The position numbers were made by a program, and so were the translations under genes. A DNA stretch of 64,000 bases. It comes from Amoebophrya sp. A120. Lineage: Eukaryota > Protista > Dinoflagellata. The notes beneath the pieces were generated by a model. It did no database searches and had not been told where the DNA came from. It saw nothing but the letters and a program-made list of their open reading frames with translations. Position 1 is the stretch's first letter, and every line of letters starts with the position of its first letter. Shown in pieces: positions 21,501 to 63,398 of the stretch. Where the stretch lies: NCBI GenBank assembly GCA_905178155.1, contig CAJINV010000001.1, positions 12,763,686 to 12,827,685 on the forward strand. Reading direction: 5' to 3'.

Positions 21501-22598
21501 GTCGTTTTGAAGCAATTTTTGCAAGAAGCGGCACGACCCGCTTGTTTTGAGATTCAGTGCGATTTCTCCCTCGTGTCGTTGACGAGCTGGCGCTTTCAAT
21601 GCTTTTACTAAAATTGGAAACACCGATACTGATCACATCTAAATTTGCACCATTTTGTCAATGTCGTCCCTTTTGCAGTTGAACTTCTCCGCCAAATCCA
21701 CCATCTTTTCTTCCGTCGGTGTATGCAAGGAAACAAGACAAAAGAAACGCTTTTTGCTGCCGTGCTGTCACTTGCGTCGATAACGCGTGTGTATTTTGTC
21801 TACGTCTAGGTTTTTTCACACCGACACCAGTCTTTTCGATTAAGGTCGTCCAGGTCGATGCGCAATTCTTTTTACAGATTATATATACAACATCTACCTT
21901 TACATCTCCGAGGGAAGCGCGAGGACCGAGGTGCTCACACGTCGCATACAAAAGCGCTGGTCTTTTCATCATTTTCTTACAGTACGAACCCGATTTGCGT
22001 GCCGCTGTGCTGGAGGTGGGCCATCCGTGTGGCGAAGAGGTGCAGCCGTTGGTGCACGTACTCACACAACTTAACAACATCGGACTCGACCATCTGAAAG
22101 AAGAAATCATCCTGGCTCTGCACCAAGTCCCGGCGGCCACGCTTGACCTGCTGCACCATGCGCTCTATCGACGTCTTCAGAAATTTGTGGTTCACATACG
22201 GCTGCGTATCGTGGCAAAATATTAAAGGAGTAGTGCCAGAAGACTGTTGCAAAGCGGAAACTTTTTGTTTCGGACTCGGAGGTCGAGGCGAAGGTAGAGT
22301 TCTGTTTTTTGCAATTCTCGAAGCAGGCATGCAACAAAATGATCGAATACTATTCTCAGACTTGACTCCAAAAACGTTCTCATTTCATCTTCGGCCACTG
22401 TTATTTGGCGACGAGCCACATCGGCTGGCACTGCCGTCTATGCCTAGTCTCGACGATGAAAATATGAGCAGATTGGCAACCAGAAATTTTATTTGTCCTG
22501 ATTGTGGCTTGACACTGAGACTGACCCGACGTTATTTTGCGGTGATACGCTTCCGGATTCCGATTCCGGTGTAGGGCCAACTTCTTCCCATATCGCAT
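18597..22598 (-). CDS. SPX-domain protein with a long disordered C-terminal region; multi-exon
   Basis: MRYGKKL (SPX MKFGKxL), PYVNHKFLK (YxxYKxLK) and LEINVAGFRKLLKQ (LNxxGFRKIxKK). Exons are joined by one TAT...ATA intron (22207-22547 + 5 nt), one ambiguous intron (~21720-21980) and GT-AG introns (~21446-21650; 20912-21113) to the 760-aa ORF. Confidence 0.8.
22207..22547. mobile_element. TAT...ATA introner in the SPX gene
   Basis: Ends TATCGTGGCAAAATA / rc TATCACCGCAAAATA. Flanks are diverged (ctgcg/cgctt), but removing element + 5 nt gives in-frame NPEA|PYVNHKF. The adjacent GT...AG pair would shift the frame. Confidence 0.7.
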
Positions 22599-23940
22599 TT
22601 TTGTGTAAGTATCTTCTTCTTCTTCTAATATACGTTGTCCAGGGCCCAGAAAGCAATACTACTGGATCGCATGATTCTTGTTTGCTTTCACTTTGCTTAA
22701 AGCTTATGCTTGTTTTCGCTTGAGCTTCTAATCATATGATCCGAGGGCGTTTTTCATAAACTCATAAAAAATGATGGGACGACCTCTTTCTGCTGGTAAC
22801 GGCCGTACGTAGGTAAGTCTAAGGAAGTGGCTTCAAGCCACTTCTACTACCATCAGCAAAAACAGAAAGTTTTCCTAGTTGTACGTAGCGTTACTACTTG
22901 TTTGTAAATCTTTAATAAGCACCTCATCCGTATCTCGCAAAATGAATGTGACACTCTATCCAAAAAAAATTTTGTTTCTTTTTTCATATTCCGTAGTTAT
23001 ACGTAGACGACCGAAGTGTCGTGATCATCGAGGACGGAGCCAGCACTACTTCTTAATTAAAGGTTCTGGACAAAATGCTGCAGATAAAAGTGCGGCTCAT
23101 CGCTCTGTGTCTGTAGTTATACTCAAAATGTTTCATCTGTAGGTAGGATTGAGAAAGAAAATGACAATCACGACGAAAATTTTAGGCTGGCGTAATTATG
23201 TATTTGCAAGGCTGCGTTTGTTGCGTGCATAGCAGAAAAGCCCCACGACAACATTATGCCACGGAGATGCTTTGACAAAAGCAAAAGGCGCAGGGCCGAG
23301 AGTACTTGGTGTTCGAGAGTGTCTACATCTCTTTTTACATAAAAGCAAGCTAGCATGGCGACCAAGAAGGATCACGCAAAATCTGGGACCGGGAATACAG
23401 ATAAAAGCGTTCTTCCACTTCTCAACGTCGAATACTTACTAACTTACCTGGTTGCGTGGACTCACATGAGATCAGACATGTTCGGTTTTCTCGGATCATC
23501 TCGAAAATCAATGCTATTGTTCGTCTTACGGGAAGGGGAACACCAACACAGTCACGCGTCACGGATTTTTTTCAGGAAACATCGCAAGTATCATCAGCAC
23601 GCACTGCTGCGACCTCGGGGGACTGCTCTCTTTTTGTCTTTTTTGCCATACAAACTTAAATCGCCGCAAGCAGACAACTGCGCTTTTTTCACGCACGGAG
23701 TATTCTCCAGACAGACACGATCGTGACCACACCTTTGACTTTGTGTTTAGTTTGCGATTCTTGCAACACAGCAGTCTATTTCTTTGCTAGTCAGAATCGC
23801 TCTCGAGTACTACTAACTTAATACAGCAAAATTGCAAATCAAGACAAGCAAGAACAAGCGGCAAAAAAAGTTCAGGATCTACTTCGATTCTTTCTCGGTT
23901 GCGACGAAGAAGATGACTGCAGCGAGCAAGAATCTGTCAA

Positions 23941-28132: not shown

Positions 28133-29039
28133 GTCAACGCGCTAGCAAGAAGATAGATATGAACCAATCCAGAAAACTTCCCAATAACAGAATCACTGTA
28201 GGGATTTCTCTCTGTATCTGTTAGATTCGATTACCCTCGAGAGAAATGAAACAAGCACAAAAATGAAACTGTTCAGCAGGTCTGTACAGGTGTCAAGACA
28301 CAAAGCTGCTTTACAGTAGCAACATCTCCTTCTCGTTGAGGGGAAAAATACTGGAGCAGGCTAATTTGTTGCAGATTTTGATTTGCACACAGAGTCTCTC
28401 AGCATTCACACACCCCTTGTTCCATCTCTCCGAAGCCGCAACAGAAGTCCGGCGCAACAAAGCGGAAAACACGTATTGCTCTCGCGATCACAACACTCTA
28501 TTTGCATTTTGTTCGTGCGTTCGTATCAAATAAAGCTAAGCAGAGGTGCCCAGCACCACGCACGACAACAGCCCTGCGTGCTTGAAGTAGAAGTCAGTCC
28601 TCCAAACGCGGTTCGACGTTAACAAAGAAATGTTGGACGCTGCTGGCATAGACACTGTTCTTGTCGAAATACGTCCAGCGATCATGGCTCGTGCGCGAAA
28701 GCCGCCAGACGCGGGACAGAGATTCAAATTCAGGTCTGCTTTCAAAGTACATTCATTACTTTCTTGTTGTGCTTCGTAGGTATTTTGACATTGAGTTGAG
28801 TTGCTGAAACGAAACAAAAGTTGTGAAAAGTAAGTTCATTGAAACAAAAAACGTATTGGTTCTTTCGGTGCTCGTTCTTTGGCGATAGGTGTGAGTGTGT
28901 CCTTATCTACGTGTCCGCAGAATGTCGGAAAAAACCTAGACCGCATATGGGTCTAATTACAGTTGGAAGACAGCTTCGGTAGGCATTTATTCTCACTCGA
29001 GACCGTCACGGTCTGGAAGTGGTGCAGGTGCATTTTCTT

Positions 29040-31810: not shown

Positions 31811-34800
31811 TTACTTTCTCGGAACGGGTCCGAGGAAGTCCTTTGTCAGAACAGCGTGGCAGGCGTCGACTTCCTGCTGCTTACGGCTCGAGTTCCACCC
31901 GAGCTCTTCACCCATGATGTCAACCACACGGCCCACCGCTAAATGCGCGGCGTTGGAATTCACAAAGGCCAGCCTGTTTTAGTTTTTTCCTCGTGACGAG
32001 TCAATCTATCACAATAGTGGATAAATCGTAAGTATCATGATTGATGAAAACCAAAACTCTGTTGTCATACTGACAAATTCAAAATCTGACGGAGACGGTG
32101 GGCGTGCGGTGAATGATTTTCTCTCCGATACAAAATTAAGATACTCTTCGACGATAGAAAAGGAGAAGCAACAAGCGAACCCACGACAGAAGGACGTACG
32201 TTCGAAATGTTCGCTCACTTCTTCTTTGTCGAGTAGGGTGGGATTCGAGGAGCGAGGGACTTCACTTCGACAAATGCAAAATGAAATGTCCTGGTACGTA
32301 GCTGCGAGGCAAGCTGTCGACAAATGCAATAAATGAATACCTGGTTCTTCGTGCGAGAATGTCGGCAGCGGTGCATGCGTGTTCGGTTTGGACGGCGTAG
32401 CGCACCTCGCACTCGAGGAAGGGACAGTTCGGGCTGCTCGTCAGGAGGGGATAGGAAGCGTAGTTTCCGTCTTCCGTCTTCCCGATCTTTGCTTTCTCGA
32501 GCGCCAGCACGTCCGCGGCCCGCGTTCCGTACGTGTTAACCTGAGAGACCGTAGAGCTATGATACATTCATCCGTCAATGCGGCGGAGCTGTCCCAAAAA
32601 AAAAAATCAACGCGCTAGTAAAGCTAACTCCGTCTGCTCTGATCATTTATTTTTGATGCACGATAGAAAACACCGACCAACAATGAGGCGTAACAAGTTC
32701 GTGCGTACTAAGACCAGATCTTCTCTCTTAGTACAACGACAAAAATCGCCAAAAGCACTACCACTAGTACAACAGCTGAAGAAGTAAAAGAGCTGTTGTG
32801 TTGTAACCAGAAAAACCAATTCGAACCAGATGGGCAGCTTGGTCCGGTGGCAGGCGGAATTGGCGAGCGAGCGCCGCGTATCCACTACAAATATGTCTGG
32901 GTCTGGAACCATGCAGGCGGTTGTCACGTTAAACAGAAGTTGTGTCAACCAGACACAGACTTAGCGTCACCGACTTGCAGTTTCCCAGACCCAGACACAT
33001 AATTTGCAATGCATATCGCGGAGAGCGTGGGCGTCCACCCCTGCGGAGCGAAATCCCCGTTTCGTCCGGCACCGAGCAGGGGCGTGTCCAGGGTGACGCA
33101 AGGGCCGGCCTTGGCCTGGAGCGCCTCGTCGGAGCGGAGCAACACCTTGTCCAAGGCGTCCTCCGCCATCTCGCGCCAGGTCGTCCACTTCCCGCCACTC
33201 ACGAAGGTCACGTCGTTCTGCGCGTTATAGCTAACAGTGTGGTCCCGGGACGCGTTGGTGGTGCTGGTGTCGTATGCATGGCAAAAGCATTGCGTCGCAC
33301 GTAGTCGTGATTGCATCACAAACCACATTTATCTATCACAAGAAGAATGAAATTGAAATTGGTCATGCATTTTTAGGTGATAGATAAGGCGGCTCTGTCA
33401 TGCAGTATTGCAATCACTGCGAGTGCAACACTTTTGCAATTCATAAGTCGTTCGGGTCCTTGGCGAGCGGCCGGGTCCCGTACCACGCGGACAAGACGTC
33501 CTCGCGCCGGGGATGCATGCTCGGCGCCAGGTACTTGCAGCTCTCTTTCAGCTATGCACTGCAAATATTATTCTGGGTCTCAGAGGACGGAGCGTGTCAT
33601 GCGAAGTGGTCCCGATCGATGTGTTGCATGCATTCTCATGCGGCGTAGGCAGCACGAGTTTGAAGGCCTCGCAAAGTCTGTGATGCGTCTGGGTGCATTT
33701 TTCCAGACAGCCATGTGTGATCATGTGGTCGGCGACTCGCACGACAAGGCTTGCATTCTTCCAGACCCAAACATATTTTCCCTGGATATCAACAAGTATT
33801 CCACGTCGTCCTCGGGGACTGCTGGGTGCAGCTCCGGGTTCGACGTCTTCACGTCGGTTGTACCGACGAGCGTGTGGCCCTGCCACGGGAGGTAGAACAT
33901 GAAGCTGCCCCGGGAGGTCTGCATGTCGCACATGCCGAGGTCCCGCGGACAGAAGTTCTCGGGGAGCACGATGTGTGTGCCGCCCGCGCCGGTCACGCAG
34001 GGCTGGAACTTCTTCGCCTCCTCGGGCGTCAGGCCCTCGGACAACTTGCGCACGTCGTCCGTAAACGGCCCGGCACAGTAAATAATCTTTTTAGCGCGGA
34101 TCTGCACTTTCTTACCGCTCAACGCGTCCCGGCAGACGGCACCGCGCGCGTGGCCGTTCTTGTCGAAGACGATCTTCTCTACGACTGTGTAGTTCGTGAC
34201 CGCGGCGCCCTTCAGCATGGCGGTGCACGCAATCGCGAGGTTCGTGCGGGCGTCGTTGTGTGCCCCCTCGTAAAAGACGCTGGTTTTTATGAGGGATGAA
34301 TAACTTCACATTTCTTGACAAACAGAAAACACGCGCGACACAAGTGAGCGTACAATGCGTCTCTATCGTGTTGTAAAAAATGTTGTCAATAACAATAGTC
34401 AGAAACAGTTCAGCTGTGTGGCTATTTTGTTCCAAAGACATTGCTCCAACTACTTACGTCGGTGAGGTGTTCTTCTAACTATCGCTCCACAGGGAGATAC
34501 TAAATCACGAACCGAAAAGCAAAAGTCTATTGAAGTAAAGGATCTCATCGTTACTTTGCGTATTTGAGTCTCGGTGCGTCCATTTGCGGGAAAGCCTCCT
34601 GCAGCTTTCGCGGGAAGATCGTGTAGCTGCTGGGAGCGGCGAAATACCCGAGCGCGTCGTAGCCCTTGAAGAAGAAGCTGTAGAGCCCGCAGGCCGGCCC
34701 GATCGCCGCGGGCGGGTAGCCGAAGGGGGGCGGCCAGATGACCCAGTGCTTGATCGGTACGGCAACCGGGACCCAATAGGTCAGGTGGCTGTTCAGCTGC

Positions 34801-35964
34801 AGCATGTAGGAGCGCTCGCGGAAGTATGAAATGCAAATGTGTCTGGGTCTGGAAGATTCTAAACTTGTAATGCTGTCTCTGGATCCTAAAAAAATTTTTG
34901 TTGCATGACCAGCAAGAGAACTCCAGTTCGTGCTACGCGGAGCGGGCGTTTCTCATGCGGTAGAGGCATCACAAAGTCCTCTGAAAATCTGTGATGCTAG
35001 GGCATGCATCACAGATATCATGGGTCATTCAAAATATGCATGACAAGCCTGGCAATCTTTCAGACCCAGACATTTTTGCATTTGATAGGAAGCAGCCCAG
35101 CACCATGTTGAAGGTCGACGTGAATTCCGACACTGCGTCCGCCGGCGCCAAAAGACTCCCGGGCTGGAAGAGGGACACCAGCGCCTTGACCAGGTACCGG
35201 GATCCGGCCCAGAGGAGCTTCGTGCTCTTGGAACTCGTTCCGCTGGCGAAATCCTCTTGTTCGACACAGGCGGTCGTCAAGCCACGGGTGGTGGCGTCGA
35301 GCGCCAGTCCCGCACCGGTGGCACCCCCGCCGACTACCAAAACATCAAACTCCTCCGCGTCCAGCCGCGCCAGCATCTGCATAGAGGAAAACGGCAATAA
35401 ATACGTCCTTGTTGTAGGCCAGCATCATCATAAGTAGGAAATGCATACGAAAACAGCAATTCAAGAATGAAAGCTACGTACCGCAAGTAAAGCTACACCC
35501 AAACGAGTAATCCTTGTCAATACCTCGTCCCGGGACGGAATTCGCTCCTCGATTACGGTTTTTCGCAGCTCCGCTGATTTCGCCAGCGCCTCTTCATTCT
35601 TGTACTTGCAATACAGCACGCCCGCTCCGACGCCGGCACCGATTCCAAAAACTCCTTTCATGAACCGCGATCCGCGTGGGCGTTGCGTCGCTTGCACCGC
35701 AGCGGCTTCCGAGCTAAAAGCACGGAAGGAGCCTGCATTATTTGCGCCGGCTGGGAAGAAACGTGGATTTGTTATTGCGTTTGGTTCATACGCACCACAG
35801 AAATCAAGGACTGCACCGCTGCGCCCATGCCTACACTGGTCCCACTGACGTAACAATGGCTGATTTCGCACTCTTATGCTTGACAATCTTGTAGCACCAC
35901 GTACAGCGACGGACCCACCTTGTCTTCCGGAAATGCTGTGTCGAAAAAAGACCACTCGCGCCAT
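31811..35964 (-). CDS. GPD2: Mitochondrial FAD-dependent glycerol-3-phosphate dehydrogenase; 9 exons (4 GT-AG introns, 4 TAT...ATA introners)
   Basis: Transit-peptide-like N-terminus, then FDVLVVGGGATGAGLALDATTRGL, EDFASGTSSKSTKL, DVLSAWYGTRPLA, SRDH, GGKWTTWREMAED, EVRYAVQTE and DILARRTRLAF. GT-AG introns at 35377-35523, 34280-34554, 32541-32826 and 31974-32340. Stop TAA at 31811-31813. Confidence 0.95.
32879..33015. mobile_element. TAT...ATA introner (TIR family 1) in GPD2
   Basis: TATCCACTACAAATATGTCTGGGTCTGGAA / rc TATGCATTGCAAATTATGTGTCTGGGTCTGGGAA; flanks ccgcg/tcgcg; removal + 5 nt gives TLSA(T/A)LARQF. Confidence 0.9.
33273..33445. mobile_element. TAT...ATA introner in GPD2
   Basis: TATGCATGGCAAAAGCATTGC / rc TATGAATTGCAAAAGTGTTGC; flanks tgtcg/agtcg; removal + 5 nt gives KDPND(S/T)STTNASRDH. 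Confidence 0.9.
33553..33788. mobile_element. TAT...ATA introner (TIR family 1) in GPD2
   Basis: TATGCACTGCAAATATTATTCTGGGTCT / rc TATCCAGGGAAAATATGTTTGGGTCT; flanks tcagc/tcaac; removal + 5 nt gives VEYLLKESCKYL. Confidence 0.9.
34825..35087. mobile_element. TAT...ATA introner (TIR family 1) in GPD2
   Basis: ~34-bp TIR TATGAAATGCAAATGTGTCTGGGTCTGGAAGATT / rc TATCAAATGCAAAAATGTCTGGGTCTGAAAGATT; perfect GGAAG flanks; removal + 5 nt gives LGCFRERSYML. Confidence 0.95.
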
Positions 35965-39240: not shown

Positions 39241-40911
39241 CTATAGCGTGGAACGGCATAAAGCAATGGCATGACACGCCTCCAAGAGAAGGCCATCGAA
39301 CACAGGTCCAATCCCTGGCGCTCGCGTTTGATACGCTGCACTGATAGACGCCCGTGCATCTATGATCTGCGGCCCATGGGTAATTTTGTAGAAAAAGGAC
39401 CCAAGGTCTGCACGAGGGCCAGACTTTGCGCCCCCCACATCGTCTTCACTCTTCGGGAAATCGAAGTTCGCAGCGGAAGATAGGCAGGACTGGGAATGGC
39501 GGCCGCGTCCTTCTCGCAGTTCTGTGCCGCCATTCAGTGCAGACGTCGACTCTGCGGCTCCTGCGGCTACTTGGCCGCCATCTGTTGCCTGGGGGCAGCC
39601 TTCGGCGGCAAGGCATTTGCGAAGCCGGGGCTGGTCTTTCACAAGCCAATCATGATCAAGCAAAAATCCGCAGCTCTCCGGGTCCTGAAAAAGCGACACC
39701 AGTTTCTCCGAAGAGTCTAGGATTGCTTTCAGATCCGAATTCACTCTAACAAGAGATAGCAGCTGTGCGTTGGAAGCCTCCCGAAGAGCTTCGCGTCGCG
39801 TCTTGAACGCTTGTCGGGGCGCATCGATGTCCGCAAAAGCAGAAAACACGGCACCTGAGTAGAGCTCGAGGTTCAACTCCGTGCCTTGCGCGCTGAGGTA
39901 CTTCAACGGTTGTTCGAACTTGCGAGTAAAGAACTTATCGGGCGTGAGGCACTGCCTGACTCCTTCATCTCCATTACCAGTCTGGTCGGCTTTTGATGCT
40001 TCCAAGCAGCGGGTCACATCAGGGTGTTCTCGTAGGAGACTTGCTAGTACAGTGTCGGCGTTATCCAAGGATTCCAACCAGAGATGTCTGAAAAGTGGGA
40101 GCCCGGAGCGTTTTGCCTTTGTGCGCGCAAGCGCTTCAATTTGTTTCCATACCGGATCAACGCTTGTCCTCATATGCTCAATCCTTGCGATACGGTTTTC
40201 TGCCTCCGCCTCGCGCTGCCACTCTGCGTCGCTGGTGGGCTGTGTCCCCATGACGAGGAGGCTCATAGTCGCTTTGAGCCGCGTGGCCCTCTCGCTTTTG
40301 GCATCTTCTCGCTGAATTTCCAAGCCATCCGCGATTTTCAAGTACAGGTACCCGGAGTAGTTGCGCTCTTGTTCTGCTGATGACCGCGAGCCTTCCCCTT
40401 TGTTGGTGCCGACATTAACATTTAGGGCGCCGTGGAGATCCGCATCAAAATACAGCTGTGGAAGGGAAAAGCACTCGTCCATCACGTTGGACGAGACTGA
40501 GTGGAAGTGCTTGCCCTGTTGATCCACATCTTTAGGAGTCCGCTGCAGCTCACCGCAGGCGACACGCTTGAGGCACTTTCTCAGGGCAGCGTGTGCTTTC
40601 AAAAGTGGGGAGTTCCGATTCTGTGCAAGGGCACAGGCGAACTCCGGGCTTGATTCTTCCAAAAATTTGACAACGCGCAACCTCGAGACCTCGCTTATAT
40701 CTGGCGCGCTGTCCAATAACAGATTTCGAAACTCGGCAATTTTCGATATCTCCTCCCTTGCTGCAGCAAGGGCCCGCGCGCCCGCTTCTCCCGATGGCGC
40801 CGGGTCCCACGCACAAAAATGAACGAGCTCGCGTGCGATTGCAAATTCAGATTGTTTGTCCTCCTCGCTCCGCTTTTGTTTGCTGACCGGATCCGGCTGC
40901 CGAATATACAC
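39241..40911 (-). CDS. Cys-motif repeat protein segment (3 domain copies)
   Basis: HAALRKCLKRVAC..CFSLPQLYF..YSGYLYLKI; HPDVTRCL..CLTPDKFF; QPRLRKCLAAEGC..CLSSAANF..GSFFYKI. Confidence 0.75.
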   Translation of the reverse strand: MYIRQPDPVSKQKRSEEDKQSEFAIARELVHFCAWDPAPSGEAGARALAAAREEISKIAEFRNLLLDSAPDISEVSRLRVVKFLEESSPEFACALAQNRNSPLLKAHAALRKCLKRVACGELQRTPKDVDQQGKHFHSVSSNVMDECFSLPQLYFDADLHGALNVNVGTNKGEGSRSSAEQERNYSGYLYLKIADGLEIQREDAKSERATRLKATMSLLVMGTQPTSDAEWQREAEAENRIARIEHMRTSVDPVWKQIEALARTKAKRSGLPLFRHLWLESLDNADTVLASLLREHPDVTRCLEASKADQTGNGDEGVRQCLTPDKFFTRKFEQPLKYLSAQGTELNLELYSGAVFSAFADIDAPRQAFKTRREALREASNAQLLSLVRVNSDLKAILDSSEKLVSLFQDPESCGFLLDHDWLVKDQPRLRKCLAAEGCPQATDGGQVAAGAAESTSALNGGTELREGRGRHSQSCLSSAANFDFPKSEDDVGGAKSGPRADLGSFFYKITHGPQIIDARASISAAYQTRAPGIGPVFDGLLLEACHAIALCRSTL

Positions 40912-41328: not shown

Positions 41329-42917
41329 TTAAGGATAAGGAAGAGGCGCTCTCGCATTACAGAGCAATATATGCTCCAGCAACAGATAGGCAATATCATA
41401 AACCTGAGCCGCGACCCAGACCCCGAGCCGACGCACTTGCGTGTGATAATGTGCTCGCCTGCGCACCGCTTGATCTTCAAGCTCCAGCAGTGCTGACCCA
41501 CCAGTGATTTTGTAATAAATTACACCAAAAAGTGACTCAGTCAGATGGTAGTATGGAACTCCCGCAAGGTTCAAGGATTTCTGGTCAGTTTGTCTTGCAC
41601 TTATTGATGCGTCGGCACTCGCCGGGCTTCCCATAGGGACAACGAAGTTCGCTGCGGAAGAAAGGCAGGGCGTGGAGTAGCCACTTAGTGCAGGCGGATG
41701 AACTGTGGCCACGGTGACTGCTTCGCCGTCTGCTGCCTGGGGGCAGACTTCGGCGCGAAGGCATTCGCGAAGCAGTGGCTGCACTTTCAAAAGTGGGTGA
41801 TCAAGTAAAGCCTGGCAGCTCTCCGAGTCCAAAAAAAGCTGCGCAAGCTTTTTCGAAGAGTCCAATATTAATAGGGCGTCCGTCTCCGTCTGGGTCTGCG
41901 CCTGATTCAACCCCGAAGTGGTTCCGACAAAAGCATAAGCAGCTAACTGTGCCCAGGTTACCTCCTTAACTGCCTCTCTCCGTGTCTGTTGAGGTGGGGG
42001 AGGAATGGCCGCATACTGGGGCCTCTGCGCAAGGTTATAAAAAAGCTGACCTGCAGGGTTATCACAAAACTGATCTGTAACCCCAACTCGTGCAGGCTCA
42101 AGTAAATATCGGGTGCCTGAGACACCCGGCGGCTTTGTTGCAGCCCCGTCCAGCTTGATGTTTTGGCGTCTTGCTATCTGAAATTTCTTCGTAAAGAAGC
42201 GCTCGCGGCCGAAACATTCCGGGGTGCCGAGACTGTGCTTCACCAAGCAGGATGTGACTTCCGGATGTTCGTCTACGAGCGGGAATAGGCTCCAGGCCGT
42301 CGCGGTTAGCCTCGCGTGGCCGAGCCAAAGTCTTCCGGCTTCATCTGCATTTCCGACTGCGATTCTGGCCTTGCGAAGCTCGTCGAAGTCTGCCGCTGCC
42401 AGGTGTTTGCGAAAGTCGTCGAGCTCTAACAAGAGCGCTTCTTCAGTGTTGCTCGGTGCATAGGAAAAGACATGGCCTCGGTTTTGATGAGCCACTTCGA
42501 GAATCCGCCTCCGCTCGCCGACAGCATAACTTTTTGCCTTTTCCCAATACTCGGCGAACATGTCGCTACTGAGCGTAACGCTCATGAGCGACCGGGTCTG
42601 GGGGCCACGAGGTGTTTTTTGCGCGGCTTCTTCTTCGCTTTTCGCCGGGGCATGCCAGTCGGGGAGGCCGTCAAGCAATCTCTCCGGAAGGGGGGCCGCA
42701 GTCTTCAAAAACAGAAAAAGTGCGCGCGTGTCCGCTTCCGTGTCCGCTTCCGTATCCGCTTCCGTATCCGCTTCCGTGTCCGCTTCCGTGTCCGCTTCCG
42801 TGATTGGCGTATTCCGCCGTCCCTCTTCCACTCCTGTCCCGCGCTCCCGCTCTGCGGTGTCATCGAAAGAAGAACCGAAAAACATCGACGGCGCAAAGCA
42901 CTCCGCTCGGGGGAGAT
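41329..42917 (-). CDS. Cys-motif repeat protein segment (2.5 domain copies, TEAD tandem repeat)
   Basis: The frame extends upstream of the ORF start to LPRAECFAPSMFF, then HPEVTSCL..CFGRERFF and QPLLRECLRAEVC..CLSSAANF..GVIYYKI. Confidence 0.75.
42729..42802. repeat. 12-bp coding minisatellite x6 (encodes TEAD repeats on the minus strand)
   Basis: TCCGCTTCCGT(G/A) repeated six times. Confidence 0.9.
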
Positions 42918-42922
42918 AACCA

Positions 42923-48161: not shown

Positions 48162-48166
48162 CGGGC

Positions 48167-49391
48167 TATGCATTGCAAATATGTCTTTATGCAGGTCAGA
48201 GTAAAAAATAAAAAATTGTCATGCCAAGAAACAGACCGCGCTAGCTAGGGCTAGGACTACCGCTTCCAGGCCGGGGGTGCGGGTGGTAAAAAAGGATCCA
48301 TGGCTTGCACCACGGAATGCACAAGCACAACCTCTATCGTAATCCTAAAAAACAGGAGCGCAACACACGACTTTGCGTTTGCGTCCCCCGGATGGACGCT
48401 CATCAGGGCGAAATAGAATCGCATGAAACTGTGATGGTGTCCTTTTGCAAACGGCCGCAGATGGTTTTCCTTTTCGCGACCGGAAAATGAAATAGGCGGA
48501 CGCCGAAGCGCCATTGCTATCGTAATCCGTCAACATCTCCCGGCGACTGAAGTGGCTTTTTCTTGTCAGCCGCCACTTTTGTGTGCCGATCTATTTTTTT
48601 TTTCGAGCTCAGTCTCGTTCTCGGACTAGCATCTGTGTGGGCGGATTCCAGAGTGGAAAAAGGTCATCCAAGGTGCCCCTACGAAACTTACTTCGCTATT
48701 TTCTATCGTACTTCATCTTCGTCTACTAGGTAAAGAAAATGTAAATCATACTGATTGTATTTGTATTTGTACGTGGGCCAAGAAAAAATGCAAAAGCGTC
48801 CACAATCATAACCATTAACCTAAGTATAGTACTCCGAAAGAAGTTTTTCTAATAATATAATTATTTTGCTTTACCTTTATCCGCCCCCCCGGGCTACCAA
48901 TACTTAGCGTAGCGTCCACAATCATAACCATTAACCTAAGTATAGTACTCCGAAAGAAGTTTTTCTAATAATATAATTATTTTGCTTTACCTTTATCCGC
49001 CCCCCCGGGCTACCAATACTTAGCGTTAGCACATACGTTTACGTCTGTACTGAGAAATAGAGATAAAGTCCCCGCCAGTAACATTTGCCATGCGTGTACC
49101 GTAGGACGCAGGACGAGGACCACACGAAATTCCTTACACCCGCATCACCACCAGAGTGAAACAAATCCGCAACAGTTTCTGGGATGCAGCGTACGACGTT
49201 CACGTTCTCATGCCAAAAGTGAATGAGTTTGAGTCTGAAAACGAAACTAAAAGAGGTAAGTAACGTGCTCTGCTCTCATGCCGTACAAGCACTCTAGCTG
49301 CATGCAATCCAATGCAAGAAAAAGAATGAGCGGACACAAATCTTTCGCATTTTTTGTCCCGACCTGCTCCGTGACACATTTGCAGTGGATA
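48167..49391. mobile_element. 1.2-kb TAT...ATA introner (family-1-like ends)
   Basis: TATGCATTGCAAATATGTCTTTATGCAGG / rc TATCCACTGCAAATGTGTCACGGAGCAGG; flanks cgggc/tgtgc. Removal + 5 nt joins ORF 49247-49603 to ORF 46583-48178 in frame (KRALPIAQKGALQL). Confidence 0.8.
48795..49026. repeat. Perfect 116-bp tandem duplication
   Basis: The unit AGCGTCCACAATCATAACC...TACTTAGCGT starts at 48795 and again at 48911. Confidence 0.95.
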
Positions 49392-53295: not shown

Positions 53296-56200
53296 GACGC
53301 ATTGCTGGAACGCAAAACGGCAAACGCAACACGCTTCGTGATGATGTCGATTCAGACTTTATTCGCAGAGTAAAGGACAAAGTTGTGCTCGGGATGAACG
53401 CTCGCTGTTGCTAATTGATGCAGGTCTTTTGTGTTTATTTGATCATGGACATACATCAAGATGATTTGGATTTAGGTAGAGAAACGAGCAAGGCTGTTGT
53501 TGTCAAGATGATGGTGCCTTCGACTCAATGCAGGCAACTTCAAGTTGTAATCCAAGCATCAACATATTAGCCGCAAACGAGCACTAAGTCACGATCTTCG
53601 ACATCACAGCGGGAATTTCGGACGTACATCTGTACTGAGAAGTACTTCTTCAAGCTGACGCTGCTGCTCTCTGTAATACCACATGTCTACCAGCAATGCC
53701 AAGGTTGGACTCGATTTTGATTTTTGGGCTGCTCAACCAGCAACCTAAACCTACGGATCAATCATGCATACATCGCGCGGTGCAATCGACTTCGACGTAT
53801 GGTGTGACAACGTTTTGTATTTGCATACTGCGCAAACGCTGCAACACGTCGTCCGAGTTGCTGCTTGGTATGTCGTCCTGGCTTTGCGCGCTCAGCTTTT
53901 CACCTTGTGTGTCCTTCGTTTCCGCGCTGGCGTCACGCGCCGCAGGCTTTGGATCCACGCCTGCTTCTTCCTTATCCTTATTTTTTTTCCGTCTTGCTTT
54001 CGTGCTCGTCCTCTGCTTCCTTGACTTGCGGTTTTTCGTCTGCTGCTTTTTTACTTTCCGTGCTTGTTTCTTCTTTCGCTTAACCTTTTGCCGATGTTGC
54101 ATGAAGACGACTTGGGAGGGTAAATCGTTCGGTCCACTGCATATGCAAGAGAAAGAATCAAGACAGAGGTCATCTATAATGTCCCTTTCTATGCCCTCAA
54201 TATGGCAGTATTAGTTTCTTGCGGATCTGCACTCCTTATCACTGTTGCTGTTCTGTCGTTTGTTTCATAAAAATAAATTAAAATTTGCGGAACAGGAGTC
54301 AGGGTGTTTATATATTTTCTTAGTGTATCGCTTTGTGTTTGTAAAATCCCGCAGGAGAGCGAGAGCCACAGTTTCGTCTAGCACTACTCAGGCAATTGCG
54401 GAGTGCTAGCAACTAGAACATGCGTTGTAGTTCCGCTGATGATACTACTTACATGCAAAACGAGGACCGTCAAACGCTGGAGAGAGATGAAACGCGAGAG
54501 AGTAGTACACAGCTATTAGCGCATCTACTATGCAAACGTGGTAACTAGATGTGGATGTCACAATTGCCGCGGGTCCGGCGTGGATATTGTTTATGTACTA
54601 GAAGTGCCCAGGAAAAGAGTGTCGAAAGGGAGCCTATAGAAAACTTGAGCTTTTTTCTTTTTGTTTTCCGCTGCATAACAATTCCCCCGTCCTCAAAATC
54701 TTCATCGTAGTCGAAGTCTGAGGGTATGAAAGTGCAAAAGAGGCAGGCTCTAAATTGTGTTCCTCTTTGTTTTTACACGCAAAGTTATGTTTTTCTTGCA
54801 AAACGCCGCGAAAATATGGTCTGCCGTTTTAAGTGTACAAGTTGAATACTTTCTTACATATGATTTGAGCATCTGCGCATACCGCACCCGACGTTTACGA
54901 AAAGTCCAGACAGAAGTACGCTCCAGATCTTGAAGTTGAAATAACGCTTCAAAAATCGCTTGTTATCAAGAATTATACAAGCACAAAGATTCCAAACGAC
55001 GTAGCTTGGAGCGTCCTAATCGTGAGTGCTTACATTGCCCAAGGATAACATACATAAGACTTTTTTGGGGAAAAGAAAGACGAAGAGGTAAGAGCAACGT
55101 TTTTGCGCTTTCGTAACAAAATCTTGCTTCACTCCGTGGTAGGCACTGGCCACGGGTGGCCCGCATTCCCACAGGACCTCCGGCGACAACACCGACCAGT
55201 AGATCATGTGCATGACTTTCCGTCGCATCTTGGGTGCAAGAAGCGCCTCCAGACTCGACATCTTCAGGTCCAGACACGTGACGGTTGGTTCCGGTAGTGA
55301 TGACCCACCTGAGGAGGAGAAACTTTTGATGCCTCGGCTCTGCCACAACCTGTCGAGATAGGTTGGAGTCGAAGTCGTGCGTAACGTGCACTTGTATTTT
55401 CTTTTTTTAAACACCCATACCTACAGCTGCTCCTAACAAACAGATGACTCGTCGTTGTCGGTACACGTAAGTACACGTACATATTAAGTTACTTAATTTT
55501 TTCTAAAAAGGGTCCTCATGCTGGACATCTACTTTTGCAGACACGCAAAAGATGTGCGTTTGTTCTTATTTGGTGCGTTCAAGGATGAATTAATCCAGGA
55601 GAGGCAGCTAGTCGAATGCAGAGGATGTTGTAGAAGTCGACGGTAGGGTGATCGTGATGAAAAGGCTTTTAGATCATATAACTAAAGCTTGTTCTTTGCA
55701 AGAATATAAAGGTTTTCAGGAGATAGTCCAATATACCTGCCTTTCGCAAGAAATCCAGAAAAACCGGCGGCGCAATTAAATTTGAAAAAGGCCCTTCTCT
55801 TTATTTTACTGGTTGATAAAGCTGCCCGTGCTTGCTTCCTTCAAACTTAGTTCACTCTCTTCACCTGTCCTTGGATCTCAACACGGCCGTCGTGACAAGA
55901 ATATCGCTCCGGAACGAGCTTGCGCGGCGCAGCCGAGCTTGATACCCAGAAATGTCGGTCGAGGGCGGGGGAGTGCTCGGTTTTACTGGAAGTCGTTCCG
56001 CACCAGAAATCGGTTTTCAATGAGATTGAAAACGAAGCCTTTTTGTGTTGATTTAGCCAACTCACATGCGGGTCATAAAAGAGAAGGAAAGTAGAGCACC
56101 GTCGCATTTCTTTTTCTATGGTAGGTAGCGGTGAACGATAACCATAACTCACCCAAAAAAAAAACTTGACAAAAGATACCTCCGCGCTCGGGTTCCTCGC

Positions 56201-58592
56201 CTCTTCGAAACACAGCACTCGGGAAAAGTGCCGCCGCGTCCACGGGTGCAAAGGAAACCTTCTTGAAGGGCACCAACGCTTGCGTTTAGCCCCGTTTAAA
56301 TTGATTTCCGTACGCTCTTGTCGACGGGGAAACTTTTCCGGGACGACGCAACCCTGGAGATGCGGTCGAAACTCGGTCCTGGATCAGGGGAAATCCGAAC
56401 ACGAGATGTCCGCTGCTGCTGGGGTGTTTGGCAAACAAAGTGAGGTGAGACTGAGAGCAATTTTTTTTTTTGGTAAGTAAGAAAATTGTGGGTTTAGATT
56501 GGAAAGTCGTCGAGAATCTTGGAAAGAAATTGATGTGGTGGTAAACAAGTGCGCAGCACGATCTGCCCAGGTGGGAGGGCTTCACGTAAGCAATTGCTAC
56601 CGATACAAACTATGCTTAAAGGGGGTGGCCTTGTAGCACCGTTGCATCAACTGCGTTTTTTTCTTGTGAGTGTTCCCTTTAGGTTTCGCAAAGTAGATGC
56701 CAACGAAAAAAGAGCTCGAGCTATGTCTACTTTCTTTAGTACGTCGAAATGCAGTTAGTATTGTCATGAGCTTCGTACTGCACCTGCAGCAAGAAACGAA
56801 AGTAGGGTGCGCAGTTCCTAGTCAACATACTGTATTGCACGAGGGAGGACGACGAGACAGATGCCACAGGCTCAATGGACGAAAGGCAATTTGGACGACC
56901 GAAGACGTGATAGGGTCGTATGTACTACATGTCAATGTGAATGTATCACAGAGAGACACGCCATGAACGAGCGTTTGTGAATGTCTCACACAGAGACACG
57001 CCACAAACTCATACATCAGACTTCCACGTTTCCGATACCATCTGGAGCTCATGAGCGACGATGTAATCTAATTGAACGGCGAGGACCACGACAGAGACAG
57101 ACACACATCTTGTGCACAACAATTCAACCGAAAAGAGCAAGCAATAGCCAGCTAGTAGGCCAAGCAAACAGATTCATATGACACGCACCATTAAACGCTT
57201 TCGACTTACAACTCTCAAACCGAGCTTTTAACACGTTCCAAACGAAATTCAACACATCAAGATGGCGACTTTCACCAAAGACGACGAGGAGGGACCGACA
57301 CAGAAGCGAGAATCTCAATCAGAAGACAACCGAACAAGAATGAACATACGGCCAGACACCGAAACAGTGGCACAGTTCTACGAGCGTAGAAAGAGAAACA
57401 AAACATGGCCACTGTAAGTTGCATTATCTTATGCAGTGGGTAGAACCTAAATGAAAGAATTATGTGATGCTATGGCTTTCTTGTCTAGAATCTGATGCGA
57501 AAGCGTGAAACCAAAACAGTACATCCATCTACCGCCAAATTTTGTTCATCACATGTCGTGTCGTGTGCAAATAACGCTTCACATATAAACGTTCTAACAA
57601 CGAGAAGATGAACTGCCAACTGTCGACTCGCGGTCTTCCTCTCATTATGCAGGTCCCCATGTGAATGTTCAACTTCAAAATCCATATGTGTCAGCCGACT
57701 ATGTTTTCTCGCTTTAGTTTTTTGATACCATCCTCGATTTCTGATTTTTCACAAAATAGGTAATTGTCACAGATGCTGTTGGTGCTTCTTTTCGCAAGAA
57801 CGTATACGTAATGTCTGTAATCTTCGGCAATAAAAATGTTGAACAAACGCAACAAATCGAAAAGACTAATTCAATACTCGTCGAGTAAATCATACATTTA
57901 TTAACTTGTTTCATTGACCCTGAGTCTGAGATCCGTGTTCGGAGGGATGAGAATTTCATAGCATTTTTTAAGAAGTTTCAGGAAGTACTACGACGGTGTG
58001 GCTATTGTCGTAATCTTGTTGATTCAGATTCTACATTTATAAAGCTGAGACGCAATGGCACCACCTCCACACATGGTAGACAAGCAAAGTGCCTTCGCTA
58101 AAAGTAAAAACACCTGTTCCTGTAGCAAATATAGTAAAATAAAAATATGTCATTGGTTTCACAACTTTTCGTAAATAGAGTTCAACACGCTTTGAGAGGC
58201 GACTTTCAGCATCCCCGCATGGTCCGACGATCCATCAGGCATTATGGAAGACAAACCTCAAACTCTGTTCCATTATCACCATGCATATCGCGCAGTGTCG
58301 GGACGCCAGCCGGAGGGCTGCGCACACTTTTCGTCCGTGTTTGCTTTCATGTCATCTTGCTCTCTTGATGAAATTGAATTCTAAACTCCAGTTTTTCTTG
58401 CTGCATTTACACGGTTCTCGATTACGAAGTTCACCAGGTAGATAGTGAAAGCTCCATCCCTGCATCGCGACGCAAATCCGACGCAACTCATAGGTTGCAT
58501 CTATGAGCAATGAAGACTCGGACGAGCACGACCGTGCCTTTGCACCTTATACAGCGAAAAGAAGTTACATACCATTTGCATTTCTCCTTCTA

Positions 58593-61500
58593 CTACATTA
58601 ACATTGCTATCGGACGGAGTTTGTCATATTCGTCCCCAGGGATAACCGCTGTTCCAGCTTGATGGCTACCAGTCGCAACTACCGCTGAAGTAGCAGTCTT
58701 CTCCGACGTCGCGTGAAAATCGGCATTCGCTACTTTTCCTCCCGGCATTGTCATCGAAAAGCGCCACAATCGCGTGTCGTTTTGGGCGGTTTCAGCTCGG
58801 AGGTCTTCGACCGAATAGAAGCTGTCTATCGCGTTCTCAACTGTTACACTCTCAACTGTTGACGCAAGAATGGCAAAAGTGAAAGCGGGGACCTTATTGT
58901 GGCGCGTCTTGCATGGCAGATTTGGCACAGATTATCAGCCTGTTTGGCCCTTCGAGGATTTGTCATGCTTAACAGGCTGCGCGGCTGAAGCCCGGGGGGG
59001 GTGCGGGGTCCGCAGGCTTTGTCATGCAAAACAACTTGATCGCGTCGATTTTTGACGATAATTTCGCATGACAAATCACGTAACCATTGAAGATGTAACG
59101 TTTGAGATGAATCCCATACTGTCCGACTCCAGGAGCTCTTCGAAGAGGAATTCCCCAGCAACCTTCATCGACACAAGTTGGTGCCCGTCGAACAGCATGG
59201 CCTGTCCGCATGTATGAAACTGAAATAACAGTCTTCTACTTCTTTTGAAAAACCAGAGCAGACGCGAATGAACTTGTTTGCTAAATGTCAAGGGAACAAG
59301 CACAAAAAAAGCTTGCTCTGGACGGCATCAACGGGGAGAAAAAGAAATCAATCTGACTGGGTTTTTCATTCGACAGTCGTGTAGTAGTGAAGAACTATTT
59401 TCAAATTGATAGCTTTCGACGTAGCAAAGCTCCGATTTTCGCACGGCAATTTCCGTCCCGCAGACGGCGTGGACTTCCTCCTTCACCGTACTGAAAAGCC
59501 CGCGCGCCTCTTCGTCTGACATCGGTGGCGTCGTTACGAGCTTTTTCACGCGGCTCAGGAAACGCTCTTCGCCCTGATTTTTTAGTTTTTTCTCGGTGTT
59601 TTTCAGTTATTTCCTGGAGGACAAATTAACAACACGAAACTAGCAGCAGACGATGCTGGTGGGTGGAGGCCGTGCCCGATTCGGTTCACTAAAGCGTATT
59701 TTCGGACAAAGGATCAAGAACGGAACCACAGAAGCACACTCAGAAACGGGGATCATCAACAACCGAAAAGTCAAGGTCAAGCTAAAGGTTTTACATTCAT
59801 ATTCCAGGCTGTAACGGACTCGGACACGTCGACGTGCGGATTGTCGTAGGTGCGGTAGTACTCTGAGGAGTGGTTTTATCCCACGAAAAAACTGTTTCAC
59901 TGTGATGATTTTGCAAGATTTGCATTTGCATTACACATGACAAAGACAACTTGGCATGCGTGTGTGGCAAGATAAACACATTTGCGCTCCGTTCTATACA
60001 TCACAAGTTTACAGTGAAACAGTTTTTTCTTGCGATAGGTTTGCCAGCAGCGCCGCGTTGCCCGCTACCAGCTCCTGGAAGTCCCCTCGCTCCAGCGCCC
60101 ACAAGACAGCGGTTTCGCTCGTCAAATAGCAAGTTGCCTGCCGCGGGGTACCATAGATGAGAGAGAGCTCCCCAAAGAAGTCGCCTTCCTGCAACCGTGC
60201 GACGACGTGGCCCTTTCAGTATCAAATTCAAAAATAGTGCTCGCCCCACTCCAAAGGTGGTATGGTTCGTTGTGCCCAATGGTGCCAAGAATCTGTTTGT
60301 GCTTGATGTTTTGCGTGAAAAATATTTGTATTGCATTTTCCTACTAGTCCGAAGCAGTAGAAGGCTTGTTGTTCCGATCAAGATTGAACCCCGATTGACA
60401 ACCACAAGCACGCCTGAGTAAAACCATTGGAGTGGCGGAGCACCTTTTTTGAATGGGATATGCGTTCGACTTTCACCTCCCCGGACTCGATCAGATACAT
60501 GCAGTCGGTGTCTTTCAGAAGCGATTCTGGTATGGGAGCAAAAAATGTTTCTCAAATTCCGTCTTAACAACTTGCCGTGCGGGTGCGTATTTTCCTGATG
60601 CAATGCTTATTTTCCGGTATGCCGAGTGCGGGGGCACAGCACGACAATTTTTCATGCTTTTACTTTCCCGAAACGTAGAATTTGCTTGGGATGCAAGATC
60701 TCAACGTCACGAAAAAAAACGACTACTGAAGTATACTTACCAGTACTTTGACTTCTCAACTTACACATCTGACCATTGTACTGAAAGAAAGACGTGTCTC
60801 TGCATGCTTGTGAAATGCTTCTTTTACATCAAGTACTTACTGCGAAGACGAGACAACACTTTTCGGTTCCGTATCTTGTTCCTTGCCTCGGTCTGCATTC
60901 AATCCACCCGCTGATCCAGGAGCCACGCCATCGTTCACGAGCAGCTCCGCACCTTCACCTTCTTCCAGCAGACGCATGTTCATGCCCGGCTGCGTGGCCT
61001 TCTTGACGCGCTGGAACCGCGTGGCCAGCTCCGCTCGGTCCGCGTCACTCAGATGTCGAAACACCCAGGTACGCTGCAGCATCATTTTCAGCCGCAGTTT
61101 GGACGCGCGTTCGGAGACGGTCTTGCCCACTCCCATGGCCGCAGAACTACTTCCGGTAATGCCGTCGGCATCGTCCTCGTCGGAGATCATTTTCTTGGCA
61201 CCACCTTTTGCACTGAGGTCATCAACAACATCTGGGTCGTTGCTCTGGAGCAGCGTTGGCGCTTCGTGCGCTGCCCGTGGCCCCCCGGCGACTTGTTCCT
61301 CGGTGCTGGCGCCGGCCCCGCGCGCCAAGTCCGTGATGTTGTTATCTACAACGTTATTCATGCTAGTTGTGCCGTTTGCGGTGCTGCTGCTGGATCCCGC
61401 GGCCGCTTTGTGGTAGGGATTGCGGAAAAACTCGGGTTTCGAGTTTACGTCGGGGTTATTGCCGAGGAACTTGTCGAACGCATCGTAAACGTATGAAAGT

Positions 61501-63398
61501 GGAAAATGCTCCGTCACCCCTACTGCAGAACAAATGCAATCATGACAAAGCCAAGAATGCTCCCACGGCCGTTGCCTCTTCGCAAAAAAGTAGTCTAGTT
61601 ATGTATCTGTCTCTTGCATGACAACAAGCTTCAGCACCCGGATCGGCAAGTGGATCCATGCATGAAGTAAACGTAGACGTAGGCACACCTACACTTCCGC
61701 CGATTCTAATAAAATATTTCCTCTGCTACTGCTAGATGAAGTTCTGCCTCCGTTTCTACTGAGGGGGAGTTCGTGTGCATCAAGCTCATAAGTCGATCTT
61801 CCACAGCAAGCCACCACCGATTGTCGACGAAGACCCGCTGCTGTTGCCGGCTGCCGGTGTGGCGAGCTTCACTGTCGCTTGTCTTGTCAACCCGAACACC
61901 ATCCCGAGTTCGCCGAAGATATCCCCTTTCCGCAGGGTATTCACCAATTCCTCGCCTTGCAAACACTCGAAGACGCCCGCCTCAATCAAGTACAGCCCGG
62001 CGTCCTGGCCGAGGCTGTCACCCTCCTCCACGATAGTCGTTGCAGTATGTGTTTCTACTTCAGAGGTGGGAGCAACAACCTCCACCCGCTGCAACGTGCG
62101 CACCAGGGCCTTCAGATCGTCCTCTGCGAGGTACTTGAAGCACCAACTGTGGTCCTTCAGCATCTGCGCCAGGTAGGCGCGCTCCTCCTCGATCTCCAGG
62201 TCGGCGATCTTGCGCTGCTTATCGCGAGAAAAAACTGTTTCACTGTAAACTTGTGATGCAGAAAATGGATCGCAGAAGTGTGTGTCATGCTACACATGCA
62301 AGACAGTGGATTTCTAGCTGTGTTTTCCCTTAGGAACCCCGCATGGCAAATTTCCGCTGTCATGTGAAACAAACTTGTGATGCAAAACTTGTAACATCCT
62401 TACAGTGAAACACTTTTTTCGTACGATACTGCTGGTAGATGCGGTAGTAGATGCTCGAGTGCTTTTGAATCAGGCTGTCGTTGCTGCCAATCAGCTCATC
62501 GAACGCGTCGCGGGACAGCTTCCACACTTTTACGACGGAGCTGCTGGGGTAGCAGGACGCCTGGTTTATGATAGATAATGGTACAATGAGGTGCATAGTC
62601 AGAATCTCAATCCTCCAACTTTCTCAGCATCATGTTCATGCTCGACATCTGCACAAACATGACCTTGTTGAAAACGAAAAACGTTTTTTGGTTCAGAACC
62701 TTCTCATGCACAAACAGGAACAGCGAAAATGAGCAGTCGCGGTCCTGCTGATCATCTACTTCCGTCCTAGTATCTCAGTAATGTACGAGGAGGCTGACGG
62801 ATGAACTGCCTTTGTTCTTTCATCATGTCATTTTGATTCATCGCACTGGCAATTTGCAGCTTGTGAACAGCGCAGTATACAAAGAAGACCGATCTTGCGC
62901 TTTCTAGATCAGAACAGAGGCACAACAACTCCTGTCGGCACTATTTGTAAGTACCTGCCGCGGGAGGTCATAGACGAAGGCGAGCTCGCCGAACATATCA
63001 CCGGCGGACAGAGAGCGCACGACTTTGTCGTCGATTTCCACAGCCACAGTGCCGCTTTCGATGACATACATGTAATCGTTGACCGCACTGCTATCGCCCT
63101 CCTTCAGGATGTACTGCTTGTTACCACTACCACTTCCGCTGCTGGTCGCGCCGCTATTCGATGCGAGCGATGCAGAATTGTTCTTGTTGTCCCCATCCTG
63201 TTGCTTCTGTGCAAGTTGCTCCAGCTGTGCGGGCGTGAAGGATGACGAGGGGGCGGCTGTGGCCTTGATTTCTTCTTTTTCGAACCGGAACAGCAAATCG
63301 CGGAAGGCATCCTTCTCTAGGTGCTGAAACACCCACAACCTCTTCAACAGGTTCCGCAGCTGCCGACGCTCCTCGTCGAAAAGCGACTGGTCCGTCAT
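58593..63398 (-). CDS. Cyclic-nucleotide-binding protein with four CNB domains (last degenerate); 10 exons, 7 introners
   Basis: MYVIESG..GDMFGELAFVYDLPRQAS; LYLIEAG..GDIFGELGMVFGLTRQAT; MYLIESG..GDFFGELSLIYGTPRQAT; CYVESG..GEFLFEE. GT-AG introns at 62561-62954 and 59574-59794, plus seven TAT...ATA introns. Confidence 0.85.
58827..59118. mobile_element. TAT...ATA introner in the CNB gene
   Basis: TATCGCGTTCTCAACTGTTACA / rc TATGGGATTCATCTCAAACGTTACA; perfect CTGTC flanks; gives LESDSFYSV. Confidence 0.85.
59213..59411. mobile_element. TAT...ATA introner in the CNB gene
   Basis: TATGAAACTGAAATAACAGTCTTC / rc TATCAATTTGAAAATAGTTCTTC; flanks gcatg/gcttt; gives CYVESGQAML. Confidence 0.85.
59877..60037. 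mobile_element. TAT...ATA introner (TIR family 2) in the CNB gene
   Basis: TATCCCACGAAAAAACTGTTTCACTGT / rc TATCGCAAGAAAAAACTGTTTCACTGT; perfect GGTTT flanks; gives LANHSSEYYR, paralogous to QKHSSIYYR in domain 1. Confidence 0.95.
60220..60460. mobile_element. TAT...ATA introner in the CNB gene
   Basis: TATCAAATTCAAAAATAGTGCTC / rc TATCCCATTCAAAAAAGGTGCTC; flanks diverged (ttcag/tgcgt); gives EVKVERKGHVVARLQEGDFFGE. Confidence 0.85.
60531..60873. mobile_element. TAT/TAC-ended introner in the CNB gene
   Basis: TATGGGAGCAAAAAATGTTTCTC / rc TACGGAACCGAAAAGTGTTGTCTC; flanks tctgg/tcttg; gives GKEQESLLKDTDCMYLIESG. Confidence 0.8.
61492..61790. mobile_element. Degenerate TAT...ATA introner in the CNB gene
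   Basis: Only TATGA of the TIR remains; flanks aaacg/agtcg; removal + 5 nt gives LWKIDYDAFDKFL (CNB W.LD...F motif). Confidence 0.7.
62220..62428. mobile_element. TAT...ATA introner (TIR family 2) in the CNB gene
   Basis: TATCGCGAGAAAAAACTGTTTCACTGTAA / rc TATCGTACGAAAAAAGTGTTTCACTGTAA; perfect CTGCT flanks; gives YRIYQQRKIADLEIEEE. Confidence 0.95.

Follow-up and report, generated by a model that had tools for sequence, protein, structure and literature searches.

Inverted-repeat introns of Amoebophrya sp. A120 leave with a 5-nucleotide duplication, probably cut in one fixed register

This study concerns a stretch of 64,000 nucleotides (nt) of the dinoflagellate Amoebophrya sp. A120 (contig CAJINV010000001.1, positions 12,763,686 to 12,827,685), here called the window, in which inverted-repeat elements starting with TAT or TAC (TAY) and ending with ATA lie within the exons of a GPD2 gene, a CNB gene and an SPX-like gene. 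The elements are removed together with 5 nt, and the cut very probably keeps one register, in which the intron begins 1 nt ahead of the TAY and extends 4 nt past the ATA. Given that register, the spliceosome appears the better candidate for the cutter, and for the two combined—a fixed register and a relaxed host spliceosome that no longer needs G first and AG last—the chances look about even. The fullest form of the proposal, put forward more tentatively, is that A120 may possess a second exact intron code, N-TAY...ATA-NNNN, with free first and last bases, read by a U1-less spliceosome and converging on the code of Euglena (3+5). The element class itself is already known, as the original prediction made from this DNA had acknowledged for Amoebophrya genomes, and for A120 the TAT start, the A-run and the 5-bp repeats are published as well. 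Farhat et al. 2021 (PMC7789003) describe non-canonical introns with inverted repeats of 8-20 nt, reading TAT, 7 nt and at least three A, and with 3 to 5 nt repeated directly at the borders (the legend of Fig. S19 has 5 bp); the legend of their Fig. 3 gives the splice sites as variable and the border as unknown.

Two deposited A120 proteins, P0001 (1497 amino acids, CNB gene) and P0003 (994 amino acids, SPX-like gene), are 100% identical to exons of the window, the gene models having been derived from transcript alignments; every gene examined is encoded by the minus strand. P0001 contains five cNMP-binding stretches, the joined GPD2 exons form an open frame of 747 codons whose largest exon matches Pfam DAO, and Pfam returned no SPX match for the SPX-like gene, whose SPX identity is not confirmed. 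Transcript-like contigs were taken from runs X1 and X4, which represent one sample with one contig per run, 15 of the 55 joints of the X1/X4 comparison being the basis of what follows; their RNA nature is a guess, though the same contigs also skip four GT-AG introns. Run X5, of a kind not on record, has a flat depth near 28 and was read as DNA. For the CNB elements, as well as for two elements of another open reading frame (ORF), Y1 and Y2, the junctions are based on annotation or frame.

Concerning the GPD2 gene, the X1/X4 contigs skip all four elements (G1-G4), the 142, 178, 241 and 268 nt missing being in each case exactly the element plus 5. In the CNB gene, P0001 is reproduced solely if element plus 5 is taken out at all seven elements noted earlier, never with +2 or +8, and P0003 is reproduced likewise at the SPX-gene element 22207-22547. 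Mapping of both proteins exposed two additional non-GT-AG introns, 58239-58645 and 21718-21980, and in total the deposited proteins show, as annotation, the removal of element plus 5 at 10 introns beyond GPD2. The homologue P0002 is colinear at C1, C2, C4, C5 and C6. Since the element leaves with 5 nt, removal recreates the target base for base, and introns of all three phases occur, exemplified by the elements at 60220 (phase 0), 58243 (phase 1) and 59213 (phase 2). The original prediction—an offset of 5 and not of 2 or 8, a frame restored in every phase, and non-GT-AG removal from RNA beside ordinary introns of the same genes—is thus borne out by contigs and deposited proteins, and at none of the four GPD2 elements do the transcript-like contigs keep the element or use nearby GT-AG sites. 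Its statement that no usable GT...AG pair exists needs rewording: in-frame GT/GC..AG pairs occur within 15 nt of the ends in 12 of 16 elements, but the RNA joints bypass them at all three GPD2 elements having them. With the cut placed at the register described below, none of the 16 elements has GT/GC..AG or AT..AC ends.

Mismatched duplications make the cut position readable within the 5 nt. The position is expressed here as j, the number of bases retained from the upstream copy of the duplication, j=4 placing the cut 1 nt before and 4 nt after the element. The four elements with perfect flanks (GGAAG, CTGCT, GGTTT and CTGTC, all real as predicted) give no information on it. The RNA joints limit j to at most 4 at G1 and G2 and to at least 2 at G3, the proteins limit it to 3-5 at C2 and C6, 2-5 at C3 and C4, 4-5 at both introns of the SPX-like gene and 4 at C8, where one junction only reproduces P0001 and no slide is possible; at C4, a cut at position 0-1 would create a stop codon. 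Mapping of RNA or proteins revealed 14 non-GT-AG introns in all in the mapped parts of the three genes, and j=4 is consistent with every one of them, j=3 and j=5 failing three each. If the cuts were independent and uniform, a common j would arise in 0.6% of 200,000 draws (null P about 0.006). The homologue P0002 agrees with the annotated junctions, QES at C3 and ESG at C6, where it likewise reads YVESGQ. The resulting intron form is N-TAY...ATA-NNNN, once with N-TAA. It should be noted, as weighing against a fixed register, that RNA alone permits positions 2-4, that values below 4 are excluded by annotated junctions, three in number (C8 and both SPX introns), and not by reads, that the RNA contigs stem from the single sample mentioned above, and that the figure legend of Farhat et al. 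2021 (PMC7789003) terms the splice sites variable. No statement of a fixed register was found in the literature searched, figures and subscription journals not being covered; the 1/4 register and its match to the host donor context appear to be new.

The 5 nt are a target-site duplication, because 137 of 165 related elements carry a perfect 5-nt direct repeat among the matches listed. These 165 distinct two-ended elements were drawn from the matches listed for the end of the family to which G1, G3 and G4, related to each other, belong; at least 185 stretches match it (184 in one assembly, 1 in another), and G4 shares 72-82% identity with the best 15 loci fetched. The repeat matches at 4/5 or better in 156 of the 165, lengths of 1-4 and 6-10 nt give an identity of 0.23-0.30, and perfect 6-nt duplications are found in none. 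TAT stands at 222 of 228 ends recovered without requiring the triplet (ends are counted, some elements twice). Two of the 228 ends, at loci L029 and L090, read TGT instead and recall the TG..CA variant of GingerRoot. In the reading preferred here, the elements are inverted-repeat transposons of the non-autonomous kind that duplicate 5 bp of their target; no transposase was found in the window, and no IS3-like one among six ORFs of its 1627-nt element. The original prediction had read one recognition rule out of the shared trinucleotide and fixed spacing. One geometry across unrelated inverted-repeat families is indeed present, but the trinucleotide and the 5 are firstly transposon features and so, alone, no proof of a splicing rule.

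The conservation of TAT (0.98-1.00, vs 0.93-0.99 at the fixed positions of the remaining repeat) is uninformative about selection for splicing in so young a family. A frame test on the fetched loci was set aside, the offsets +2, +5 and +8 being inseparable (9.9, 9.8 and 9.2) in loci selected on +5. By a codon model, which infers orientation from coding potential and not from RNA, 41 of 129 testable copies were confidently stranded, 24 vs 17; the base before TAT is G in 10 of the 41, and the 3' cut is without AG bias. TAC polarity is 2/3, in three cases only.

In the proposed course of events, insertion leaves a 5-bp duplication with TAT/ATA ends, and removal then takes the element plus 5, as at 4 sites in RNA contigs and 10 in deposited proteins; these two steps we regard as established. 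The intron would then be N-TAY...ATA-NNNN, as suggested by the mismatched duplications, with 1+4 equal to the duplication length. Each end of the inverted repeat could read TAT as start and ATA as end, which would make the element a complete intron in either orientation and at any target and so would explain mass invasion. TAY would be taken as donor positions +2 to +4, ATA would stand in for the positions −7 to −5 that are rich in A at ordinary acceptors, its distance setting the 3' cut, and the hairpin would draw the ends together in place of the missing U1.

The comparison with the ordinary introns of the window rests on 12 GT-AG introns, 8 known via RNA contigs and 4 via annotation. Their donors are mostly GTAY and not GTRAG, and at the acceptor side they end in CAG within an A-rich context that lacks a pyrimidine tract. 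A stands at +3 in 10 of them and TAY at +2 to +4 in 7, and A occupies −7, −6 and −5 in 9, 8 and 7, respectively, vs an interior A content of 0.258. As TAY coincides with local donor positions +2 to +4, a relaxed spliceosome is the likelier cutter, ahead of a Euglena-like one that acts on a hairpin; the original prediction had pictured a separate machine alongside canonical splicing, and the motifs shared with local GT-AG introns point instead to the same machine. Intermediates occur within a single SPX-like gene: an intron of the form G-TAA...ATA-CACC (21718-21980, with a GT donor in the start GTAAG and a non-AG end) is followed by a GT-AG intron reading GT...ATA-CCAG, and under the 1/4 rule the element at 22207-22547 gives an intron 22203-22548 reading GT..CA. 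For A120, nearly all spliceosome proteins and U2, U4, U5 and U6 have been found, but not U1, according to Farhat et al. 2021 (PMC7789003). In the published accounts, U1 is missing in two strains with such introns, a strain from Karlodinium has U1 and mostly GT-AG introns, and in strain A25 the repeats begin with TTA, its nine listed main classes being all TT-NN.

Against the spliceosome stand several observations. No first/last base pair (G-G or A-C) and no A at −2 emerge from the 16 ends, and a branch-point consensus beyond AT was not seen there either, the A of ATA included, all of which is hard to reconcile with spliceosome chemistry. TAY is paired with ATA (p > 0.68) in 9 of 15 folded elements, so that the supposed donor would be buried. 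IS3EU transposons typically have TAY..RTA ends as well, and the resemblance to GTAY may therefore be fortuitous. The canonical sample comprises just 12 introns, in which −13 and −12 are A-rich as well (7/12).

The strongest of the alternatives, although less likely than the spliceosome, would keep the same elements and the 1/4 register and assign cutting and joining to machinery independent of the spliceosome and gauging its distances from the hairpin base, as has been proposed for the nonconventional introns of euglenids, with an RTCB-type ligase, as in SOS splicing, as candidate. The Euglena code is built alike (N3-CDG...CHG-N5-6, with strict spacers), Euglena introns leave as circles without lariat, the terminal bases in A120 are unconstrained, and the end duplexes of the 16 elements have z from −1.4 to −11.4 vs +1.8 to −2.7 in the 12 GT-AG introns. 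The elements of the window carry the terminal inverted repeat with TAT, 7 nt and an A-run, but it has decayed in C8, C2 and C7, which keep 3, 6 and 5 of 17 matches, respectively, yet are removed exactly; C8 keeps the register with a fold z of −1.04 (vs −4.68 for C5). A hairpin-measuring machine would also sit uneasily with the motifs common to GT-AG introns, with the intermediates, and with SOS splicing being imprecise and leaving indels.

It is improbable that the cut floats from intron to intron within the duplication, position 4 being due to chance or annotation bias. Position 3 is excluded by only 3 of 14 junctions, all annotated, and the published counts per family (for instance gt 92, at 47, ag 79 and ac 60 of 331 in fam12) show GT and AT starts and AG and AC ends both enriched, as would be expected if an aligner slides ambiguous junctions. 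The null probability given above, the origin of the models in transcript alignments, the absence of any slide at C8 and the P0002 readings at C3 and C6 speak against it. The published class tables had been considered as support for the fixed register (T at +2 in 9 of 9 main A120 classes, A at −2 in 8 of 9). They were set aside because an aligner that slides toward GT/AG-like bases at perfect duplications, as BLAT may do, gives the same pattern and the family counts, taken from 21 of 58 rows, are symmetric.

That the skips are not RNA splicing at all, but DNA-level excision in some life stage or jumping of reverse transcriptase between direct repeats (a hairpin with a direct repeat being the classic setting of template switching), is very improbable: X1 and X4 are guessed to be RNA, but X5 shows none of the four GPD2 joints and has one contig unbroken over 32986-34852, the reading frames need the removal, and C8 and the 22207-22547 element match at only 1 of 5 flank bases. 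Run X7 (raw RNA of 2026 under the same species label) yielded 71 reads, almost every one of them at a single repeat end and none on unique sequence, and therefore provides no test of splicing; at 35054-35087, 52-68 of these reads carry one constant foreign flank on each side, i.e. they represent a related unspliced element end in another sample.

The features of the window are summarised in Table 1. The original prediction counted 14 insertions in four genes, of which 12 were located exactly and two more probably, the latter being Y1 and Y2 of one ORF, which are probably its pair in a gene with a Cys motif; it missed 58243-58644, 21722-21979 and, probably, 48167-49391, and it listed one TAC start where there are two (60531 and 54725). 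Homologue searches for the Y gene and for the gene at 48167 gave nothing usable, and the Y elements are supported by the restored frame and, for Y1, by the end duplex. The 5-nt flanks of the 16 window elements are perfect in four and near-perfect in four.

Table 1 Non-canonical intron elements and related features of the window (position, the value of j allowed by the junction)
Feature	Coordinates	Strand	Details
Larger TAT..ATA element outside mapped exons	15794..17420	.	1627 nt; perfect GGTGG flank
Second non-canonical intron of SPX-like gene	21722..21979	-	G-TAA...ATA-CACC; intron 21718-21980; P0003 mapping, position 4 or 5
SPX-like gene element	22207..22547	-	TAT..ATA, 341 nt; flanks 1/5 alike; P0003 junction allows position 4 or 5 only
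GPD2 element G1	32879..33015	-	137 nt; flanks 4/5; RNA joint 32874/33017, position <=4
GPD2 element G2	33273..33445	-	173 nt; flanks 4/5; RNA joint 33268/33447, position <=4
GPD2 element G3	33553..33788	-	236 nt; flanks 4/5; RNA joint 33547/33789, position >=2
GPD2 element G4	34825..35087	-	263 nt; perfect flank; high-copy family; RNA joint 34819/35088
Probable further element	48167..49391	-	1225 nt; G-family-like ends; flanks 3/5; frame restored; end duplex z −6.5
Y2 element	54142..54677	-	536 nt; flanks 0/5; frame restoration only
Y1 element	54725..55115	-	391 nt; TAC start; flanks 0/5; frame restoration and end duplex z −5.4
CNB element C8 (eighth)	58243..58644	-	402 nt; flanks 1/5; almost no inverted repeat; intron 58239-58645
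CNB element C7	58827..59118	-	292 nt; perfect flank; P0001 junction = element+5
CNB element C6	59213..59411	-	199 nt; flanks 3/5; P0001 position 3-5
CNB element C5	59877..60037	-	161 nt; perfect flank; strong hairpin, fold z −4.68
CNB element C4	60220..60460	-	241 nt; flanks 2/5; P0001 position 2-5
CNB element C3	60531..60873	-	343 nt; TAC start; flanks 4/5; reads AT..AG; P0001 position 2-5
CNB element C2	61492..61790	-	299 nt; flanks 3/5; P0001 position 3-5
CNB element C1	62220..62428	-	209 nt; perfect flank; P0001 junction = element+5

A search of the window with Rfam returned 0 families. A de novo scan of the window gave 30 candidates, nine rows of which fall at known elements, and no trusted element beyond these. 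TAY..RTA pairs within 1 kb and with at least 16 of 20 terminal matches number 9, whereas five shuffles contain 0, 0, 0, 2 and 1; with the threshold lowered to 14 of 20 matches there are 26 vs 16-27. As the weak repeats thus lie inside the shuffle range, decayed elements rest on RNA, annotation or frame. The element at 15794-17420 has inverted ends of about 86 nt and inner 119-nt tandem and inverted repeats, and no transposase-like ORF was seen in it among the 6 of 20 ORFs scanned, none being above the Pfam cut-off. The probable element at 48167-49391 contains a perfect 116-nt tandem duplication (48795-49026). The stretch 63407-64000 holds a TAT-N7-AAA end at a distance of 4 nt from the K685 codon of P0001, where another CNB intron, extending beyond the window, probably has its 3' end; a second such end is found near 63669, and the positions 63722-63938 form a 108-nt palindrome. 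Weak TAY/ATA end pairs, which may be decayed elements, are found at 1898-2253, 6949-7176, 7317-7620 and 8281-8814. The stretches 39576-39724 and 41724-41869, about 2.15 kb apart and 74-84% alike, likely belong to a duplicated gene pair.

At stake is the route by which roughly 60% of A120 introns are removed. If true, the fixed 1/4 register would turn the 'highly variable splice motifs' into one rule and allow correct gene models; it would also make the mechanism testable on existing reads and indicate at which bases branching should be sought. Should the spliceosome be the cutter, it would join exons with neither the first nor the last intron base fixed, which goes further than the literature searched describes; if not, a dinoflagellate would possess a precise hairpin splicing system parallel to that of Euglena. 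Either way, tens of thousands of exon insertions without codon change would be explained.

Concerning the known systems, the closest are the introner elements described from the same strain (PMC7789003), which likewise mix with GT-AG introns in one gene; repeat lengths and borders are variable there, whereas here the family tested has a duplication of 5 and the cuts fit a single register. The introners of Micromonas and Aureococcus (PMC11282704) share the principle that an element resembling a MITE (a miniature transposable element with inverted repeats), together with its duplication, becomes an intron on insertion, but genuine GT/GC and AG sites are brought along or recruited there, neither of which the A120 elements need. 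With IS3EU/GingerRoot (PMC10045372, PMC12730594), TA..TA ends are common (TAYGG..CCRTA in fungi, sometimes TG..CA), but the duplication there is usually 6 bp, so that the 5 bp found here place the elements outside that group.

As for unusual splicing, most introns of Fritillaria borealis (PMC13326754) escape GT-AG and are handled by a modified spliceosome; U1 is, however, kept there and at least 55% of the ends can still form a terminal pair, whereas in A120 the first and last bases seem unconstrained and no U1 was found. SOS splicing by AKAP17A, CAAP1 and RTCB (PMC12779559) likewise removes inverted-repeat DNA transposons from mRNA near the repeat ends and without GT-AG, but it is known from animals and is imprecise, with indels, whereas restoration is exact here and survives repeat decay; the joints are exact at 4 of 4 sites, though contigs drop rare splice forms. 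The nonconventional introns of euglenids (PMC12501133, PMC11282704) have in common with those of A120 that complementary trinucleotides stand at a set distance from either cut, the longer 3' spacer, the proposed MITE origin and the coexistence with GT-AG introns. They differ in using CAG/CTG with spacers of 3 and 5-6, the cut being followed by a purine, instead of TAY/ATA with 1 and 4, they belong to an unrelated lineage, and hybrids are rare in Euglena, whereas a GT-start form occurs among the 14 introns here. The A120 ends thus read N-TAY...ATA-N4 and not N3-CDG...CHG-N5-6, being alike in layout to the euglenid introns without belonging to them.

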